Assembly: GCA_045599925.1 (NCBI GenBank)
Contig: JAZRWV010000314.1
Span: 1-32,523 of the forward strand
Source: Myxococcota bacterium
Lineage (GTDB): Bacteria; Myxococcota_A; Bradymonadia; UBA4248
DNA length: 32,523 nt
Reading direction: 5' to 3'
Positions 199-12,600 of the stretch are shown here, one piece after another. How positions within the stretch are numbered: position 1 is the stretch's first letter; each line of letters begins with the position of its first letter. The notes under the pieces are model-generated. The model did no database searches. It was given only the letters and a program-made list of their open reading frames with translations, and was not told where the DNA came from. The translations under genes and the position numbers were made by a program.

Positions 199-251
199 GC
201 CAGATCGTGTGTGAAAACACGCTATTTTTTTTAACCATTCAAGGAGTTAAA

Positions 252-722
252 ATGAAACGTTGGATTAAAGTTGCAGCCTGTTCACTCGCTCTGGCCGGCC
301 TTCTGAACGGATGCTTTGGTAGTTTCGGTGCCACACGCCTTCTCTGGAACTTCAACAAAAACGTCCATTCAAACGTCTTTGTCCAGACACTCGTCATGTG
401 GTGCTTCACCATTCTTCCCGCCTACGAACTCTTCATCTTCGCCGATTGGCTGATCATCAATATGATCGAATTCTTCATGGGTTCAAACCCCATCGGAAAC
501 AACATTCAGTACATTCCCGGCGATGACGGCACGATCACCGCAATGGGCGAAAATGGTGAATCCCTCAAGTTCACAGCAGTTGCTGAAAACCGCATGATCG
601 TTGAACATGACGGCGTCGTTCTCGGCGAAGTGACTGTTGATCAGAACAAGAACGTCACGATGACGAACTATGCCACTGCTGATGTTCAGAATCTCGACCT
701 GAACAGCATTCCGGCGATGTAA
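252..722 (+). CDS. small lipoprotein, DUF3332-like
   Basis: ATG 252 is preceded by AAGGAG (241-246). The signal peptide MKRWIKVAACSLALAGLLNG|C carries a lipobox. The pattern CFGSFG...hydrophobic stretch...IEFFMGSNPI matches my recollection of the DUF3332 family. The GTG 207 extension in the ORF track is not needed. Confidence 0.8.
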   Translation: MKRWIKVAACSLALAGLLNGCFGSFGATRLLWNFNKNVHSNVFVQTLVMWCFTILPAYELFIFADWLIINMIEFFMGSNPIGNNIQYIPGDDGTITAMGENGESLKFTAVAENRMIVEHDGVVLGEVTVDQNKNVTMTNYATADVQNLDLNSIPAM

Positions 723-743
723 TCCATCCCTGATACGGATATG

Positions 744-4043: not shown

Positions 4044-4299
4044 AAAACCTCTCAAAAAGGGACAACAAACAATGAAAATCATCATGAGGGATGTCCCAGT
4101 ACCCCTCAGAAACTGACCGCATAGTTTTACACCTTGTATTACCATGGCAACAACAGTTTTTTGCATGCAGGGCAAATCTATTGAGCTTTTATTTGCAATC
4201 TTGGTGCTTTTTCAAAAATGATTGACGATAACGAACAGTCACATTATGATATTACGGCCTTATTGTGGGCATAGTGAATCATCACTTATGGAGATTAAC

Positions 4300-6078
4300 A
4301 TGACAATGAAGAATCGCGGGATTCAACGCTTTTTAGCACTTGCTCTTATGGCTGCCGGCTTCGGCATTTTTTCTGGTTGCAGTCAGATTGATGTCAGCAC
4401 TGAAGAAGGTATGAAAGAAGCCCTCAGCTCAAGACAGAAACTCGATAAAGCCATCCCTAAAATTATGGGTATGTCAACTCGTCCGGAAGAAGTGAACAAA
4501 TACCTCGACGAACTGATTAAACTTTATGCCGATGGAAGCAGCTTTGACCGTGACGTCATTTCTGCAATTGCATCCTCAAAAAATAAAGACAAAATCCACG
4601 ACTCTCTCGTCAAAGCAGCTAAATCTCCAGACTATAAACAGGTCATGCAGGCTGCTATCGGCGCAAAATATACTGAAGATGCCGGTATCGTCGATATCCT
4701 TCTCAGCCGCTGGGATGATAAAAAAGTCGGTATCAATCCTGAAGTTCGTCGTGTCGTCCTCGAAACAGGTACTGCATTTAAAAATCCTGCCATCACTCAA
4801 AAAGCTATCGAAGTCCTCAACGGTCAGCTCGATGAAACACCTTTCGTCCTCCTCAGAACCAGCTGCGATGTCCTCGCATATCAGGCTGATCCCAATGGCC
4901 GGGAAACACTCATGAAGGTCGTTTATCATCAGGATGGTGTCGGACGTACTCTCACCACAAACTGCACTCGCGCTCTCCTCGCACTTGACAAATCTGATGT
5001 CGCGCCCCTGCTCCTCACAGCCTATAAGCTCGAAAATAAAGATCTTATGGCTTATGTCGAAGCTCATCCCGATACCCTCACTCCTGAATCCATTCGAAAC
5101 AACACCGCAAATGCCCTCGCAATGTATCGATATCAGGAAGCTATTGACCCAATGCTCGACTACCTCGAAAATACCAGAACTATTCCCGTTCCTGGCACCC
5201 TCGCCATTCGCCCAAATACTGACCCAGCATGGCAGATGTGGGCTGGCCTCGTCGGCGTCGCTGCTCAGTCAACCCTCTTCGCTATCAATGATATCGGCAT
5301 CCGAAATAACGAAAGAGCTAAAAAAATTCTCGTCGACATCTTTAACTGGACAACACCTTATCAGTCAAAATTCAAAAACGCCATCGAACTCACCGGTTCC
5401 ACAAATATCGAAGTTTCTCAGCGCGTCAACGCCTTCCGCGCTCTGCGCGAAAATGACCTCCTCTCAAATGCTGAAGTCCTCGCAATGATCGAAACCCTGA
5501 AAGGCGAAGAATTCATCGATGAAAGAACCTGGAGACCTTTCGCTCGCTCTTCGATCGGCACTGATATGGTCACATACTGCGCTGTGACTTCAAAACCTGG
5601 TGACACAAACACGATTTGGGCCGCTTTCAACGCCATGAAACAGCCTGATAAGGAATTCTATGTGCCTCAGGTCGCTGAAGGCGAAGTCAAGAAAGACCAC
5701 TACAATGACAACGTATACAAACGTATTGATGACGTTAAAGCCGCTTTTGAACTCGCTGATGAATGCCAGACAAATGTTGACTGCTATGCCGGAAAATTAA
5801 AACCCGATATGGACAGCTATGCAAGAGTCAGAGCTATATACGAGCTCGGTCTTTCCGGTGATCACAAATACTTTGAAACCGTTTGCAACGAATACAAGAA
5901 TCTTGATGTCTTCGGGCAGCTCTATGGCACAAAGGCTCTCGCCCTGCTCGGTACAAAAGACGATGTTCAGGCCATTAAAGACCTCAATAAAAAACTCGCC
6001 AGTGAAATGAATAACATTCAGTACATCGCTGCAAAACCAAACCTCGATGGCCTCGTTACTACTCTCGCTAATAAATAA
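4300..6078 (+). CDS. putative lipoprotein, predominantly alpha-helical, unknown function
   Basis: MTMKNRGIQRFLALALMAAGFGIFSG|CSQ is a lipoprotein signal peptide. GGAG (4290-4293) lies before ATG 4300; ATG 4288 and 4306 are alternative starts. The ORF is long with clean coding periodicity. I recognise no family. Confidence 0.75.
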   Translation: MTMKNRGIQRFLALALMAAGFGIFSGCSQIDVSTEEGMKEALSSRQKLDKAIPKIMGMSTRPEEVNKYLDELIKLYADGSSFDRDVISAIASSKNKDKIHDSLVKAAKSPDYKQVMQAAIGAKYTEDAGIVDILLSRWDDKKVGINPEVRRVVLETGTAFKNPAITQKAIEVLNGQLDETPFVLLRTSCDVLAYQADPNGRETLMKVVYHQDGVGRTLTTNCTRALLALDKSDVAPLLLTAYKLENKDLMAYVEAHPDTLTPESIRNNTANALAMYRYQEAIDPMLDYLENTRTIPVPGTLAIRPNTDPAWQMWAGLVGVAAQSTLFAINDIGIRNNERAKKILVDIFNWTTPYQSKFKNAIELTGSTNIEVSQRVNAFRALRENDLLSNAEVLAMIETLKGEEFIDERTWRPFARSSIGTDMVTYCAVTSKPGDTNTIWAAFNAMKQPDKEFYVPQVAEGEVKKDHYNDNVYKRIDDVKAAFELADECQTNVDCYAGKLKPDMDSYARVRAIYELGLSGDHKYFETVCNEYKNLDVFGQLYGTKALALLGTKDDVQAIKDLNKKLASEMNNIQYIAAKPNLDGLVTTLANK

Positions 6079-6107: not shown

Positions 6108-6149
6108 AAAGACCAGATTCAGGTTCGATTTCCTCATCTGGTCTTTTTT
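6108..6149 (+). terminator. intrinsic terminator
   Basis: AAAGACCAGAT (6108-6118) pairs with ATCTGGTCTTT (6136-6146), and a T-run follows to 6149. It starts 30 nt after the stop at 6078. Confidence 0.75.
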
Positions 6150-6197: not shown

Positions 6198-8420
6198 ATG
6201 CAGTTCCCAACCGCACCGATTTTGCCTTCAAATCCAATGATTTCACATCTCGAACTCGAACTCGAATGGCTGCGCGCTCTATTATTGGTCAGAATTCGAG
6301 AAATGCAGGCAACAGGCCTCCTGCCAGGTGCTGAAAACCTTCGTCCGGGAACTGTCGTTTATCCACAGGAAGTCGAAGCCAGACTCCATGAACAGGACGA
6401 AATTGCCAATGATCCAACACTCGATGAAGTCGAAGCAAAAGCTCGACTCGCTCAGGTCGAACACAAAAGAAGACAGTTCTATCGCGACCATACCGTCTTT
6501 GACACAACCGCCCCTCTCGCGTTTCTCAAACAACAGTACAGACTCGATGATGCTCAGTATCTCCTGCTGCTCATCGTCGCTGCTCCTGCTTTTAATCCAT
6601 CTTTTTCCAGACTTTACGCATTCATTCAGAACCATTTTGAACGCGATTATCCTACTCTCGCTCTATTTATCGAAATCTTTTCAAAAAACAGCAGAAATAC
6701 AGCCGGTCTAAACCGCCTCATTTCCCCGGGAAGCCTCCTCATCGGCGAAGGTCTTATCGAAATCCAATATACCTCAAGCATTCTGCCGCCGAACAAACAG
6801 CCTCTCACGCTTCCAATGCGAATCCAGTCATTTATCGGCGGCATCGAAATGATCGATTCAAGACTCGCTGCCTACACAGAACTGCGTTCACGACGATCGC
6901 TCAATACAGAAACGATGCTCACAGAAAGACAGCATCGAGAATGGTATTCCAGAATTGACAAAATTAGTGCACTCCTCCACACTGGAAAACAGCTTCCTCT
7001 CTGCTATATCACAGGCCCATCCGGTGCAGGAAAACGCCGTTTCGGTCAGGAAGTCGCCGCCATGCTCAACCGAGATTTGCTCTGCGTCGATATCAAAGCC
7101 GTTCAGGAATCGTTCGAAAGTTTTGCTTACGGTGTCAGTGTCGCATGCCGCGAAGCCATGCTCCACAACGCCATCGTCTGCTTTTATGGCTGGGAAACTC
7201 TGATACTCCCAACAACTGCAGAAGATGCGAATTTCCATGCACAAATCACAGCGCTTCATCTCAACGTCTGTCGTGTGCTCGATTCCATTCTCGCATGGCA
7301 TCCTCAAACCATCATCATCACCTGTCAAAATAGCGTTTCTTTCCCGCCTCGCCTCGATACTCGCAATGTCGAAGCTTTGCGCCTCACCATGCCCGATCAC
7401 ATTACGAGCCGAAAGTTGTGGGAAATCGCTCTTCCTCCGGAAAAACGCGACGAAAATTGCGATATCCAGGCATACGCCGAAAATTTCCATCTCACTCCAG
7501 GGCAGATTTCTGATGCCGTCTGCGTTGCTGCTTACGAATCTGAACCCTCCAACATCGTCAATACCGATCACATCATCGGCGCCGTCAAACAACAAATGCG
7601 GCACCGTCTCAGCGAACATGCCACACTCATTGAAAAAACCTATAAATGGGAAGATCTCATCGTCAACAAGGACGTCGAAATGCAGCTCCATGAAATCGTT
7701 TATCGATATCAATACAGAGCCCGCGTTCTTGACGACTGGGGACTCGGTGACAGATTCGGCCACGATATCGGCCTTTCCGCCCTCTTCGACGGCCCTCCGG
7801 GATCCGGTAAAAGTATGTGCGCTGCCCTCATCGCCAATGAAATTGGAATCGATATCTATCAGGTCGATCTTTCACGCGTCATGTCAAAATACGTCGGCGA
7901 AACCGAGAAAAATCTCGCCCAAATCTTCAACGAAGCCGAAAATGCTCAGGCTATGCTCCTCTTCGACGAAGCCGATTCTCTTTTCGGACAACGAACAAAC
8001 GTCAAAAATTCAAACGACAAATACGCAAATCTCGAAGTCAACTACCTCCTCCAGCGTATCGAACGTTTTCCCGGCGTCGCCATTCTGACCACAAACTTCC
8101 CGGCCGGAATCGATGAAGCCTTCGCAAGACGTCTTTCGCTTCGCGTTTCTTTCCCAAAACCTTCAAAAGCCGAACGCGCAAGACTTTGGCAGTCCATGCT
8201 TCGCTCTTCAAAACTTCCTAAAGGAAAAATCGATTATCGCGAACTCGCTACAGAATTTGAAATCACAGGCGGTTACATCAAAAATTCCGTCCTCAGAGCC
8301 GCTTTTATTGCCGCATCAACCAACGGCATCGTCGATCAGGACACGCTTTATCAGGCCGCACGCATTGAAATGAAAAGCATGGGCATGCTCGTTTCTCACA
8401 ATGATGAGGATGTCGAATGA
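6198..8420 (+). CDS. two-domain AAA+ ATPase (degenerate N-terminal P-loop domain plus canonical C-terminal AAA module)
   Basis: The C-terminal module has Walker A GPPGSGKS, Walker B LLFDEAD, and KYVGETEKNL...NYLLQRIE...AILTTN...D.AF.RR, all classic-clade AAA features. The upstream domain has GPSGAGKR but no acidic Walker B (AIVCFYGWE). AGAGG precedes ATG 6198. Confidence 0.9.
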   Translation: MQFPTAPILPSNPMISHLELELEWLRALLLVRIREMQATGLLPGAENLRPGTVVYPQEVEARLHEQDEIANDPTLDEVEAKARLAQVEHKRRQFYRDHTVFDTTAPLAFLKQQYRLDDAQYLLLLIVAAPAFNPSFSRLYAFIQNHFERDYPTLALFIEIFSKNSRNTAGLNRLISPGSLLIGEGLIEIQYTSSILPPNKQPLTLPMRIQSFIGGIEMIDSRLAAYTELRSRRSLNTETMLTERQHREWYSRIDKISALLHTGKQLPLCYITGPSGAGKRRFGQEVAAMLNRDLLCVDIKAVQESFESFAYGVSVACREAMLHNAIVCFYGWETLILPTTAEDANFHAQITALHLNVCRVLDSILAWHPQTIIITCQNSVSFPPRLDTRNVEALRLTMPDHITSRKLWEIALPPEKRDENCDIQAYAENFHLTPGQISDAVCVAAYESEPSNIVNTDHIIGAVKQQMRHRLSEHATLIEKTYKWEDLIVNKDVEMQLHEIVYRYQYRARVLDDWGLGDRFGHDIGLSALFDGPPGSGKSMCAALIANEIGIDIYQVDLSRVMSKYVGETEKNLAQIFNEAENAQAMLLFDEADSLFGQRTNVKNSNDKYANLEVNYLLQRIERFPGVAILTTNFPAGIDEAFARRLSLRVSFPKPSKAERARLWQSMLRSSKLPKGKIDYRELATEFEITGGYIKNSVLRAAFIAASTNGIVDQDTLYQAARIEMKSMGMLVSHNDEDVE

Positions 8421-9115
8421 ACGACCCAAATACGCCACACACCGAATTCCTGCGCGATATCCAATCATGGGTCTGGAAGCGCTTTCCAACGCGTCAGCTC
8501 TCCGCAACTGATATATTTTATGCGCTTCAGTGGGCCGAATCCGGCGTGCCGTTCTGTATTTTTTCCGACGGTTTCGAAGCCTGGCTACACACTCATCCAC
8601 TTGAATTCGTCAAATCCGGCAATCTGTCCGATCTTCATTTCCAAGCAGACCGCATTATCAAAGCCTATCATCAGCATATTTCATCTGCACCAGATACAAC
8701 ACCGACGATCGTCGACGATCCATACGACACCGCACTCACACGAATTGCCGAAGTCGGAAAAAAAACAAAAAACCCACTTCTACGCGACGAATTGCGAATA
8801 TTTTATCAAAATATGCTCATTTCCCGCACAGAGGCCAGAAAACTCTATCCCGACTGGAACCAGCGCTCCGAATCGTTTTATCCCCTTAAAGCTCGCGCAA
8901 TCATCGACTGGGACAAAGCTCTTAAAACACTTCTTCAGCATTGCTTTTCCATGCTTTCCGAGCAGGAACAGACACACCTCAAAAAACTTGCGCCTGTCGA
9001 TGAAATTCACTGCATGAAAATTGGCGAAGACGCACAATATATATATAAAACTCGAATTCTCAATCAAAAAATTGCTGATTATTTCGAAATTTCTGCACTC
9101 ATAAAAAGTTTATAA
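8417..9115 (+). CDS. hypothetical protein translationally coupled to the AAA+ ATPase
   Basis: ATGA overlap: start 8417 and ATPase stop 8418-8420. 232-aa ORF with no motif I recognise. The overlapping alternate-frame ORFs are shorter and compositionally poor. Confidence 0.65.
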   Translation: MNDPNTPHTEFLRDIQSWVWKRFPTRQLSATDIFYALQWAESGVPFCIFSDGFEAWLHTHPLEFVKSGNLSDLHFQADRIIKAYHQHISSAPDTTPTIVDDPYDTALTRIAEVGKKTKNPLLRDELRIFYQNMLISRTEARKLYPDWNQRSESFYPLKARAIIDWDKALKTLLQHCFSMLSEQEQTHLKKLAPVDEIHCMKIGEDAQYIYKTRILNQKIADYFEISALIKSL

Positions 9116-9125
9116 TTTTTTATAT

Positions 9126-9210
9126 GCCGCGCTATCGGCCTTAAAAGGCCGATACGCTGCGGCTGGTTCGGCTATTTATACTTTTGCTTCGCAAAAACTA
9201 TAAATACGCC
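9126..9210. repeat. two REP-like hairpins after the coupled ORF
   Basis: First: GCCGC-GCTATCGGCC-TTAAAA-GGCCGATACGC-TGCGGC (9126-9163). Second, nested: GGCTATTTATA-C-TTTTGC-TTC-GCAAAA-AC-TATAAATACGCC (9170-9210). Confidence 0.55.
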
Positions 9211-9218
9211 TCACCTTA

Positions 9219-9250
9219 TATAGGCTCCGCTTCAACACCATCGTTCTTAG
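9219..9250 (+). repeat. 32-nt direct repeat, copy 1
   Basis: TATAGGCTCCGCTTCAACACCATCGTTCTTAG matches 9451-9482 at 28 of 32 positions. A second shared block (CCTCTGAACAAAAC versus CCTGCTGAACAAAC) follows each copy. Confidence 0.6.
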
Positions 9251-9450
9251 GGAACCTCTGAACAAAACAATATTTTAAGGCACTAATTGAAGAGAGCCGA
9301 GTGGGGCCCCGGCGAGGCAAGATGGTTAGGCACCGCAAAATGCTTATAGATCTTTAAGATATTACGGATTCTTAAGGGCTTAGCCCTTAAGTGGAGTTTG
9401 GGGCAAAGCCCCTGAAAAATAAAGCTATTAATTTTTATTCAGAGTTTCCC

Positions 9451-9482
9451 TATAGGATCCGTTTCAACGCCATCGCTCTTAG
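9451..9482 (+). repeat. 32-nt direct repeat, copy 2
   Basis: TATAGGATCCGTTTCAACGCCATCGCTCTTAG, offset 232 bp from copy 1. Confidence 0.6.
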
Positions 9483-9537
9483 ATGACGCACGGTCTGATA
9501 CCTGCTGAACAAACCTACGCCATCTCATTTCCCCCTC

Positions 9538-9565
9538 TTGCAATCATAACAATTAGTGCTATAAA
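9538..9565 (+). promoter_or_regulatory. candidate sigma70-type promoter for the giant-lipoprotein array
   Basis: TTGCAA (9538-9543), 16-nt spacer, TATAAA (9560-9565), about 105 nt upstream of ATG 9671. Motif match only. Confidence 0.3.
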
Positions 9566-9574
9566 AATACGTTG

Positions 9575-9630
9575 AAGCGCTTCCAGCTTCCAAATACGAA
9601 GGGTTATTTGGAGTTTGAGGCGCTTTTTTA
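9575..9630 (+). promoter_or_regulatory. terminator-like leader hairpin (possible attenuator, or the 3' end of an intergenic RNA)
   Basis: Outer stem AAGCGCTTC (9575-9583) pairs with GAGGCGCTT (9617-9625) with 1 mismatch. Inner stem CCAAATA (9590-9596) pairs with TATTTGG (9605-9611). A T6 run (9624-9629) follows. The structure sits between the candidate promoter and the RBS of the first giant gene. Confidence 0.4.
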
Positions 9631-9670
9631 TTATCTGGCAAATAGTTAGGTAAATCGAGTGGTATCAGCA

Positions 9671-12600
9671 ATGAGAAGAACGAAATTCGCAAGCATTATT
9701 TCAATTCTGGCGCTTATTTGGGCAACCGGCTGTTCGGATAATGAAACTCACAATCCAAGCAATCCGCCTGAAGATGATGCCCCCATCGGCCCAGGCGAAG
9801 AGATTGTGTTGGATACCTCAAAAAGCATTAACTCATGGTCCGGCTGCATGATTGATGCTGACTGTACAAACGGTGCTTTCTGCTTTCAGGGACAATGTGT
9901 CGTTCAATGCAATGAATCCATGACATGTGACTCTGGATATGCCTGCCAATTGTCGAGAGGGCGATGCGTAAACGAATCATTCCTGCAGAATATCGCCGAA
10001 GCTCTGAAAATGGATACACCTGAATCCCCCATGTCACCACAGGAAAAAGCCATGATATTGGCAGAGCTTGATTTACAGGCCGCACAAAATTCAGATGTTC
10101 GTTACTCTGTTTTAGGAAAGAAAAACGAAGCTGGTGAAAAAATTCAGAATGTCGAGTTCATTAAGCGTCTTCCTTATGAAATTCATCGTGAAAATGCAAA
10201 AACAGGCCTATCCTTTGAAGTTCGCAATTCTGTTGGACCTGTATTTTATGCCGTTAAAACATCGGAAAATTCACTGCCCGTTTTGAAAAAAGTCAAAGGT
10301 ATTCGCACCGCAAACGGTAGTTATCAATACACACTTGATGTGAATGCGGATGAAGCTGTCAGATCGTTAAAACATCTTCAGCGTGATGGCGGAGAACTCG
10401 ATACTGTTGAACTCGATATCGTCACCAGTGTGGGCAACGAATCCGTACTTCTTTCCGAAACACCTTCAATAAGCAGAATTTATTCTGGAAAGGTTGTCCC
10501 TTTCAGTGTGCTTTCTGGAATAGATTTACCCATCAGAATGGCTATCGAAGTATTTCCGGATGATGTTCATAATTTTGACGAAATACAATCGATAAAATTG
10601 TATTTGCCTGTCAGTGATACTGATATATTTTCACCGGAAAATGTAAAATCGACAGACACTATAACAGAATGGACCAGCGTCAATATTGCTCAAAAAGACA
10701 ATGCATCAAACTGCACAAACGGAAAAGCTTGTTTCGCAGCCGTTTTTTCTACAAATGACTTCGTTTCTGCTGGCAGTATGATTTTATCAAAAGATGATCA
10801 TGTCAATCGCAGCATCCGTCTGGAAATTGATAGCTTTGACGCAGAAAATACGACATTTTCCGGTATTATTACCGATAAGTTTGAAGGCTTTTTCAGAGAA
10901 TCCGCTTCGAGCAATATCAGTAATGAACAACAACAATGGAATGTCACTCAACTTGGCGGTTATTTTAAAGTTGTGGGTACATCCTTATTGCCGGAAGACT
11001 TGAAAAGTCACAACCATGCGGCAGAAAACTTAAAAATGCGTGACATCAGTGAAGCTTCTATTCAAATTTGTTCGGGCGATGATGTTTCAGCATTGATGAA
11101 ATATATCAAAACTTCATGGACTGAAGGATGCAATGGATTGGAAGAAAATGATGCTTTGTTGTGCCAAAAGTATCAGACTTGTAAGAATGTGGATAACTTA
11201 GCCTCTTATGAAGCTCTTTCTTTGGATGATAGATTGTTCTGTGTTCAAGCTGCTGTAAATGAAATCTTGTTGGATAAAACTCGCGTTTCCTATGTTCTCG
11301 AACAGGTACTTGTTTCTGATGCTTCTGGAAAAGAAAATACCGAAGAAATTGAAGTCTGCGGTAGAAAGATAAACAATTTTGAAGACTTTCGAACAGCTTG
11401 TGCCGATTCAAACTGTAATTTGTGCAAAGAACGACCCGAATTATCATGTGCAAGTGATTTACTGGCAAAACTGTATAAAGAAAATAAATTATTGGATTCT
11501 GATGCAAAATCCAGTCTTGCAAGCAGCTGGATAAACATGATGAAGGAATCATATATTGCGCAGCAATATCTTGCCTGGAATCAGGATACAGAAATCCGAA
11601 AGTCATGGCTTACGGGAGCTTCCTATTCCGGTACATTTGCTGCCGCAACGATGAATTCTCATAACAAAACACTGCTCAAACGGTATCAAAGCGAGGTTCT
11701 CGACGTTCAGCGAAGTGTCTTGAGGAAGCAGTTTGTTCAGAGTACACTTGAAATGCTTTCGCACAGTACTGCCGACGCTGATGCCACAAATGTGAATGAG
11801 TTCAGTTCTCTGCGCAATCGAATACTCAGTGATCTCTCCAGTTGCTGGGAATCCGCGGCAAGCAGTCTTGGTCTGGCCGCCAAACGATACGATGTCCTCA
11901 TTCAGAATGACAGCGAACGCCTTTCTGCCGCAGCTGAATTAAGACCTGTTCTCTTTGATCTCTATTTTAGTGGTTTGATCGCTTCAACAATCAATCTTAA
12001 AGCAGATCAGGGATCATTAAATGGTGCATTTGGGGCAAATCTCTCCAGCGCAATCGGTAAGCTCAGTTCGTTGGATCAACCTTTTGAAAATCTCGTGTTT
12101 TCACGAGATGGGGAAATTTTTACCGATACACGACTCGAAACTGATAGCGACGAAACAGCTCTGGGAAGAGTCAAGTCTGCTGCAGAATCTTCAACTAAAA
12201 AAGCAGAACAGAAACGAACGGATGTTTTTAACGCCATCAATGCACAAAACCAGGAAATCCTGACCATTAAAGATGGGTATATGAGCTCTCTTGAAAATAT
12301 GAGAACTCAAATCGTCAATTTATGCGGATATCCGTCAGACTGTTCAACTTCAGAACAACGAAAAACATGTCAGCTATTTACGGCACCTTTTTTCTGTGGC
12401 TTAGCGATACCATCTACGGATACAACTGGTGTCGATCTTTCCAAATTTGAATCTTCTACACATGAATTGGCACAGGCATCGATTAGTCAGGTTTCCGATT
12501 TAAATAATTGTCTCGAAAAGTATTCGCATTATGAAGATGGAACACTCTCTGAAATGAGTGAAACGGATATTCATTCGTGTTTTGGATATGATCTGAACGA

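Follow-up and report, generated by a model that had tools for sequence, protein, structure and literature searches.

The stretch of DNA considered here, contig JAZRWV010000314.1 of a Myxococcota bacterium (Bradymonadia; assembly GCA_045599925.1), is 32,523 nucleotides long and is referred to below as the window. It contains two genes on the same strand, encoding a 740-aa AAA+ ATPase and a 232-aa partner protein (Table 1). Both open reading frames (ORFs) are present as stated in a preliminary description of the sequence, and they are coupled through the ATGA at 8417-8420, in which the stop codon of the ATPase gene overlaps the start codon of the partner gene. The family of the ATPase is known from extracellular contractile injection systems (eCIS); its stand-alone context appears undescribed, and its partner is novel. 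An iterated hidden Markov model (HMM) scan and searches of Pfam and NCBIfam found no sheath, tube, baseplate, spike or Pvc16_N gene in the 32.5-kb window, which bears out the earlier remark that the structural genes are missing.

Table 1. Positions of the features of the window and of the motifs of the ATPase
Feature	Position	Strand	Remarks
HEAT-repeat lipoprotein gene	4222..6078	+	about 600 aa; upstream of the ATPase gene
Hairpin with U6 tract	6108..6149	+	11-bp stem; minimum free energy -19.9 kcal/mol, z -3.5
ATPase ORF	6198..8420	+	740 aa; ATG start
ATPase D1	residues about 240-470		degenerate
ATPase D2	residues about 525-735		catalytic-type, classic clade, with two Arg fingers (RR)
D2 Walker A	residues 532-539		GPPGSGKS
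D2 pore loop	residues 564-567		KYVG
D2 Walker B	residues 586-591		MLLFDE
D2 DKYANLE	residues 607-613
D2 sensor-1	residues 629-633		ILTTN
D2 FARR	residues 642-645
Partner ORF	8417..9115	+	232 aa; ATG start
GC-rich hairpin	9126..9163	+	no U-tract; -28 kcal/mol; 11 nt after the partner stop
Dispersed repeat	9247-9412		about 165 bp; Logan contig depth 66-170x
Inverted 17-mers	9273-9289 and 9550-9566
Terminator-like hairpin with U6	9574-9632		about 40 nt upstream of the ATG of the first giant lipoprotein
Four tandem paralogous lipoprotein genes	9671-30009		1632-1703 aa; 41-47% mutual identity
Ser/Thr protein kinase, N-terminal fragment	30332-30871		179 aa; distal end of the giant array
IS4-family transposase	31010-32458		after the kinase fragment

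The ATPase consists of three parts. Its N-terminal domain corresponds to the winged-helix domain WHD of Pfam (PF22977, residues 15-226, 1.5e-16), and its D2 domain to Pfam AAA (PF00004, residues 529-653, 5e-26). D1 contains GPSGAGKR at residues 273-280, and its Walker B (VCFYGWETL) is without the acidic DE pair. Every D2 motif quoted in the preliminary description was found, the pore loop being aromatic, so that its reading of a degenerate first P-loop domain followed by a canonical AAA module is upheld. The motifs of D2 do not vary across 17 homologs, each of which has a degenerate D1; the protein is under very strong purifying selection. Foldseek alignments of the AlphaFold2 (AF2) model (pLDDT 80.3) with p97, NVL, Rix7, and Cdc48 span D1 and D2 over 530-580 columns, and p97/Cdc48/Rix7 are also the best sequence matches in the PDB. 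The Pfam WHD and AAA matches, the PDB matches, and the tandem fold of the model thus identify the product as a type-II tandem AAA+ ATPase; its layout is that of Afp15/Pvc15. NCBIfam and PADLOC gave only sub-threshold matches, all through D2, to IteA, CdvC, CDC48, PAN, and FtsH.

The hairpin at 6108-6149 upstream of the ATPase gene, which had been proposed as a terminator, withstands examination: none of 200 shuffled sequences folds as well, and a simple terminator scan passed over it on account of its loop, which is longer than 8 nt. It likely serves the HEAT-repeat lipoprotein gene upstream as an intrinsic terminator, with a separate transcription unit of the ATPase beginning after it.

The partner was described as an ORF without recognisable motif, and indeed it has no match in Pfam, NCBIfam, PHROGs, or PADLOC. 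Its AF2 model (pLDDT 88) is all-alpha, with 11 helices in two lobes, and is ordered almost throughout, only about 8 N-terminal residues being disordered. The family has 20 invariant positions, including an N-terminal motif P-x-RQLS-xx-D ... W. A word-index search gave 16 matches, and a full profile search of 1.84 billion representatives gave 15 clusters, every one compatible with a single family; matches in both searches were about 230-240 aa long or fragments and carried no family annotation, their genomic context being checked for loci of the clade only. With at least 15 homologs, 20 invariant positions, and a confident model, the 232-aa ORF is a real gene. Foldseek with the AF2 model against PDB and BFVD returned nothing below an E of about 0.7, and hhalign of the partner profile against 26 ORFs located 3' of ATPases in other orphan and eCIS loci, Pvc16_N included, gave probabilities of 0.6% at most. 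The partner is therefore lineage-restricted, with no known family or fold. A DnaD/DnaB_2-like helical domain was considered for the N-terminal motif by eye; neither Pfam nor Foldseek gave support for it.

Orthologous loci were inspected with flanks of up to 10 kb: L007/L008 (86% ATPase identity), L009 (85%; metagenome-assembled genome (MAG) GCA_045599245.1, contig JAZRVP010000038.1), L010/L011 (79%), and L001/L003 (72%). In all seven (72-86% identity), the order of HEAT-lipoprotein gene, ATPase gene, and an ORF of 231-236 aa is kept, and the partner was found in 6 of 7 distinct clade loci. An overlap of 4 nt or 1 nt between the two genes is retained in L007, L008, L009, L010, and L011. The coupled partner is thus kept in orthologs with at least 79% ATPase identity, and the partner itself down to 63%, at which level (L012) it lies 650 bp away from the ATPase. 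The HEAT-lipoprotein gene is found 5' of the ATPase gene down to 72% identity and is absent from L012; it is probably inherited synteny rather than a functional component. Partner identities of 65, 58, 39, 33, and 35% stand against ATPase identities of 86, 85, 79, 72, and 63%, and, judged by these values, the partner evolves much faster than the ATPase.

Kinship with injection-system ATPases

The preliminary description saw a likeness to the Afp15/Pvc15-type ATPases, and the three-part architecture, the plasmid match, and the nearest outgroups all confirm it. A tblastn search against plasmids aligned residues 104-729 of the ATPase, 85% of its length, with Afp15 of pADAP at 27.4% identity (E 9e-55). 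The matched gene sits between the genes of the CIS tape measure (Afp14) and of DUF4255 (Afp16), a position assigned to Afp15 in the component table of PMC6899500. The closest database relatives outside its own clade are P0028 (29% identity, 81% coverage, E 2e-74) and P0029; each is the first gene of a complete eCIS locus that also encodes Pvc16_N, sheath, gp19 tubes, CIS_tube, VgrG, PAAR, and gp25. The ATPase is related to the motors that load cargo in injection systems resembling phage tails. Among these motors, Pvc15 has an N domain akin to DNA-binding proteins of the winged-helix type, while its D1 is deviant and its D2 is the catalytic one (PMC11495950). Alg15 and Pvc15 are needed for cargo loading and probably unfold the cargo, which carries a long disordered N-terminal loading sequence (bioRxiv 10.64898/2026.05.27.728243). 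More than 85% of eCIS loci have their own linked ATPase (PMC6899500).

A scan of GTDB species genomes revealed at least 557 relatives of the ATPase, of which the best 80 (28-43% identity) were kept and scored with iterated HMMs for seven eCIS markers in flanks of up to 10 kb. Markers were present within 10 kb in about 50 of these 80. No marker was detected in the window or, within the available flanks, in any orthologous locus. In a neighbor-joining tree of D1-D2 (89 sequences, 439 columns, 292 bootstrap replicates), the window clade together with L004 (42% identity) is nested in a group of 20 loci that are all labelled as Myxococcota (Kofleriaceae, Myxococcales, Polyangia, 'Deltaproteobacteria') and are marker-free in 20 of 20 cases. 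The split of the 20 loci has 88% bootstrap support, and that of the window clade with L004 has 100%; the sister group of the window clade is marker-free in 292 of 292 replicates. The clade of the ATPase thus comprises Myxococcota only, and no eCIS structural genes lie near its loci. No description of such eCIS-detached Afp15-like ATPases was found in the eCIS literature searched.

The surroundings of the orphan ATPases are heterogeneous housekeeping genes, with two exceptions (L023 and L035), and an all-against-all blastp over the 20 orphan loci revealed no common neighbour gene beyond close relatives. In L023 (9373-16850), the ATPase gene is directly followed by that of an eCIS_core/DUF4157 protein of at least 1725 aa, DUF4157 being an eCIS marker (PMC8213781); in L035 (3-11527), it is directly followed by the gene of a protein of at least 3333 aa that ends in a calpain-type protease. 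Both look like modules of ATPase plus cargo without structural genes in the flanks.

A second, more distant paralog with WHD and AAA domains occurs in the gut Myxococcota lineage of the window: L095 (JAZRVP010000268.1, 2563-5019, 818 aa), from the same MAG as L009, and L091 (4691-6973, 760 aa), which is of the same type. Genes of PG_binding_1-domain proteins flank these paralogs, and in L091 beta-lactamase-like, DUF58-like, and transglutaminase genes come next. Here, too, eCIS genes are absent. Several orphan paralogs may thus be found in one MAG, as with L009 and L095 or L004 and L038. Myxococcota eCIS loci do exist as well (L067, L062).

A candidate stand-alone unfoldase module

With somewhat better than even confidence, the pair may be read as a stand-alone two-gene module, composed of an eCIS-derived hexameric type-II AAA+ unfoldase of the Afp15/Pvc15/Alg15 family and a lineage-specific helical adaptor or substrate. 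By analogy with Pvc15 and Alg15, D1 would form the assembly ring that holds the hexamer together, D2 would hydrolyse ATP and thread the polypeptide through the central pore, and the winged-helix N domain would select the client. The fast-evolving 232-aa protein would be the client itself or an adaptor that selects it. The output would be the remodelling or unfolding of a cytoplasmic protein, and not the loading of a tail tube from the same locus.

Several observations weigh against this reading. The partner is the best candidate for the adaptor or substrate by virtue of linkage and coupling only. L004, with its 42%-identical ATPase, has no detectable partner. L002 (GCA_017421975.1, 10001-12357), whose ATPase is identical to that of L001, has none either, and an Exo_endo_phos gene on the opposite strand takes its place, which reflects either real partner loss or a chimera of the MAG assembly. 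In the clade at large, the two genes are therefore not bound to occur together. Moreover, the absence of eCIS genes refers to flanks of 10 kb or less, and the phylogeny is a neighbor-joining tree of 439 columns with long branches.

A wider evolutionary reading is more tentative, and we rate its chance at clearly under one half: the Myxococcota branch of the eCIS loader ATPases, with the gut-associated, Bradymonadia-like lineage of the window included, may have become detached and been exapted as a free cytoplasmic unfoldase with private partners, or may itself represent the cellular ancestor that eCIS took up as a loader.

An unlikely alternative is that the ATPase loads cargo in trans, serving an injection system encoded elsewhere in the genome, with the 232-aa protein as a small cargo or a cargo-specific adaptor. 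Every characterised member of the family acts in eCIS cargo loading, the orphan clade includes the eCIS-cargo-like neighbours of L023 (the eCIS_core/DUF4157 giant) and L035 (the calpain-type end), and Myxococcota eCIS loci are at hand in L067 and L062. However, eCIS loci normally have a linked ATPase, both in the published survey cited above and in about 50 of the 80 relatives scored here. The orphan clade is monophyletic, has a stable housekeeping synteny (RuvC-YebC), and contributes several orphan paralogs to a single MAG, and no eCIS gene was seen on any examined contig of the lineage. The partner, with its short disordered terminus, also differs from eCIS cargo and its long disordered loading sequence.

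Less probable again is a two-gene module of conflict or defence, such as an Iet-like or other AAA+ anti-phage system or a toxin-antitoxin-like pair. In NCBIfam and PADLOC, the ATPase does match IetA/IteA best (2e-29 and 7e-33), fast evolution of a partner is common in conflict systems, and the region 3' of the pair is variable. The IteA match, however, reaches 102.7 bits against a cutoff of 510 and concerns the generic D2 only; no IetS-type protease accompanies the ATPase, and the partner has no PADLOC match. The pair is single-copy and vertically inherited, lies beside RuvC-YebC and not in a defence island, and its ATPase is under the very strong purifying selection noted above.

The eCIS ATPases Pvc15 and Alg15 were only recently shown to be cargo-loading unfoldases, and injection systems are being engineered for protein delivery. 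If the stand-alone unfoldase reading is correct, a well-supported clade free of the machine would demonstrate a cellular role of the motor that is independent of the machine, and would offer a simpler system for studying client selection by the winged-helix N domain. For annotation, an Afp15-like ATPase alone is not evidence of an eCIS.

The spacer and the giant lipoproteins

The pair was described as standing directly before four proteins of more than 1600 aa. This is seen in the window, though a spacer of 543 bp (9116-9658) intervenes, in which two strong hairpins and a dispersed repeat lie. Each giant has a lipoprotein-type signal peptide (signal peptidase II, SPII) ending in the lipobox Cys and a Cys-rich N-terminal module, and none has a Pfam domain. 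Homologous arrays were found in GCA_045599245.1 (at least 3 genes), and a single gene in L018. Such giants are very rare, with 6 clusters in 5.8 billion proteins compared with 27 for the ATPase clade.

Synteny with the orthologous ATPase loci stops at about the GC-rich hairpin behind the partner gene, DNA synteny ending at about 9094-9115, and continuous synteny with L017 begins at 9624. L017 is the syntenic three-gene giant array of GCA_045599245.1; it lies on JAZRVP010000259.1, behind RecBCD-like genes and on a separate contig from the pair of that genome. The repeat between these two boundaries reached 66-170x depth in two gut-metagenome runs, compared with 3-8x for neighbouring genes, and has many different flanks; two further copies are intergenic in L009. 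One possible reading is a MITE- or REP-like element (miniature inverted-repeat transposable or repetitive extragenic palindromic) at the rearrangement junction. In the DNA runs X1 and X2, all relatives are diverged and fragmented. Upstream motifs are held in common with L017, namely GGAACCTCTGA...TATTTTAAGGCA at about 9250-9283 and TTATTATCTGGCAAA.AGTTAGGTAAA, and thus the giants carry their own leader region. L017 has a hairpin at the same place (about 9905-9960) as that before the first giant, with a different stem and the same downstream motif TTATTATCTGGCAAA.AGTTAGGTAAA; the hairpin could be a conserved leader or attenuator of the giant-lipoprotein operon. An Rfam scan of the spacer gave nothing credible.

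The region 3' of the pair varies across the orthologs, being occupied by a gyrA-like gene, a TyrRS gene, a 959-aa ORF, or DUF3332, and no giant is found there in L001, L003, L007, L008, L009, L010, or L011, which represent five or more MAGs. L018, in turn, contains one giant only, and the 10 kb upstream of it are free of the ATPase. The pair itself occurs in a single copy, is inherited vertically, and keeps its place beside the housekeeping genes RuvC-YebC. The kinase fragment and the IS4 transposase at the far end of the array fit a rearrangement mediated by insertion sequences. Because of the orthologs without giants, the synteny break, the spacer with its dispersed repeat, and the transposase with the truncated kinase at the far end, the adjacency of pair and giants is a lineage-specific rearrangement and not a conserved partnership.

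The suggestion in the preliminary description that the pair serves the giants, as a dedicated unfoldase, assembly chaperone, or quality control for the four lipoproteins, did not survive this comparison; that description had itself named homologs of the pair lacking the giants as grounds for refutation. Though the two units are adjacent on the same strand, in a layout that recalls Afp15-16-17-18 and the ATPase-plus-giant pairs of L023 and L035, and though GCA_045599245.1 has both in one genome, this role is highly improbable: that MAG keeps them on separate contigs in different surroundings, seven loci have the pair without giants, L018 has a giant without the ATPase, the giants form only 6 protein clusters where the ATPase clade forms 27, the units are parted by a spacer with hairpin, repeat, and terminator-like leader whose upstream motifs travel with the giants, and the giants, because of their SPII signal peptides, would leave the cytoplasm unfolded via Sec. 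In annotation, adjacency of genes in one genome should not be taken for functional linkage.

At the other end of the window, adjoining RuvC, a 583-aa ankyrin-repeat protein is encoded on the minus strand (874-2625). Its best NCBIfam matches, far below the cutoffs, are Legionella Dot/Icm Ank effectors. Free-living bacteria do not usually have such a protein, which may be of relevance to interactions with a host or prey.

Comparison with known systems

The ATPase can be compared with three groups of known proteins. Afp15 of Serratia entomophila pADAP, Pvc15 of Photorhabdus, and Alg15 of Algoriphagus have the same domain order, with a winged-helix N domain, a deviant D1, and an active D2. In common with the window protein they also have the second homology region (SRH), two Arg fingers, the K-Y-[VI]-G pore loop, and the signature [SA][NH]D[KR]YAN[LI]E. 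By this likeness the window ATPase would be a hexameric unfoldase as well. Unlike the three, it stands outside any eCIS cluster, with no adjoining Afp16/Pvc16 (DUF4255), sheath, tube, or baseplate gene and with no cargo bearing a disordered N-terminal loading sequence in its locus. It differs further in forming part of a separate Myxococcota-only clade with housekeeping surroundings, and in being coupled to a novel 232-aa helical protein.

Cdc48/p97/VAT and NVL/Rix7 match best both in structure and in PDB sequence (E 5e-21 and E 2e-32) and have the same tandem D1-D2 fold; a further likeness may be counted in the adaptors that bind their N domains and pick clients. Unlike Cdc48/p97, the window protein has a winged-helix variant as N domain in place of the double-psi barrel, and its D1 is degenerate. 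Membership of the Cdc48/p97 family was rejected on these two grounds and on the TIGR01243 score, 70.9 bits where the cutoff is 802.65.

IetA/IteA of the IetAS anti-phage system has in its classic-clade AAA module the best NCBIfam/PADLOC match, and a two-gene arrangement is found in both cases. IetA, however, has about 370 aa with a single AAA module, and its partner is a subtilase-type protease, whereas the window protein has 740 aa with WHD and D1 in addition, and its partner is non-enzymatic and helical. Membership of IetAS was likewise rejected, as the NF042959 match (102.7 bits, cutoff 510) covers D2 only and the partner matches neither PADLOC, Pfam, nor a protease.

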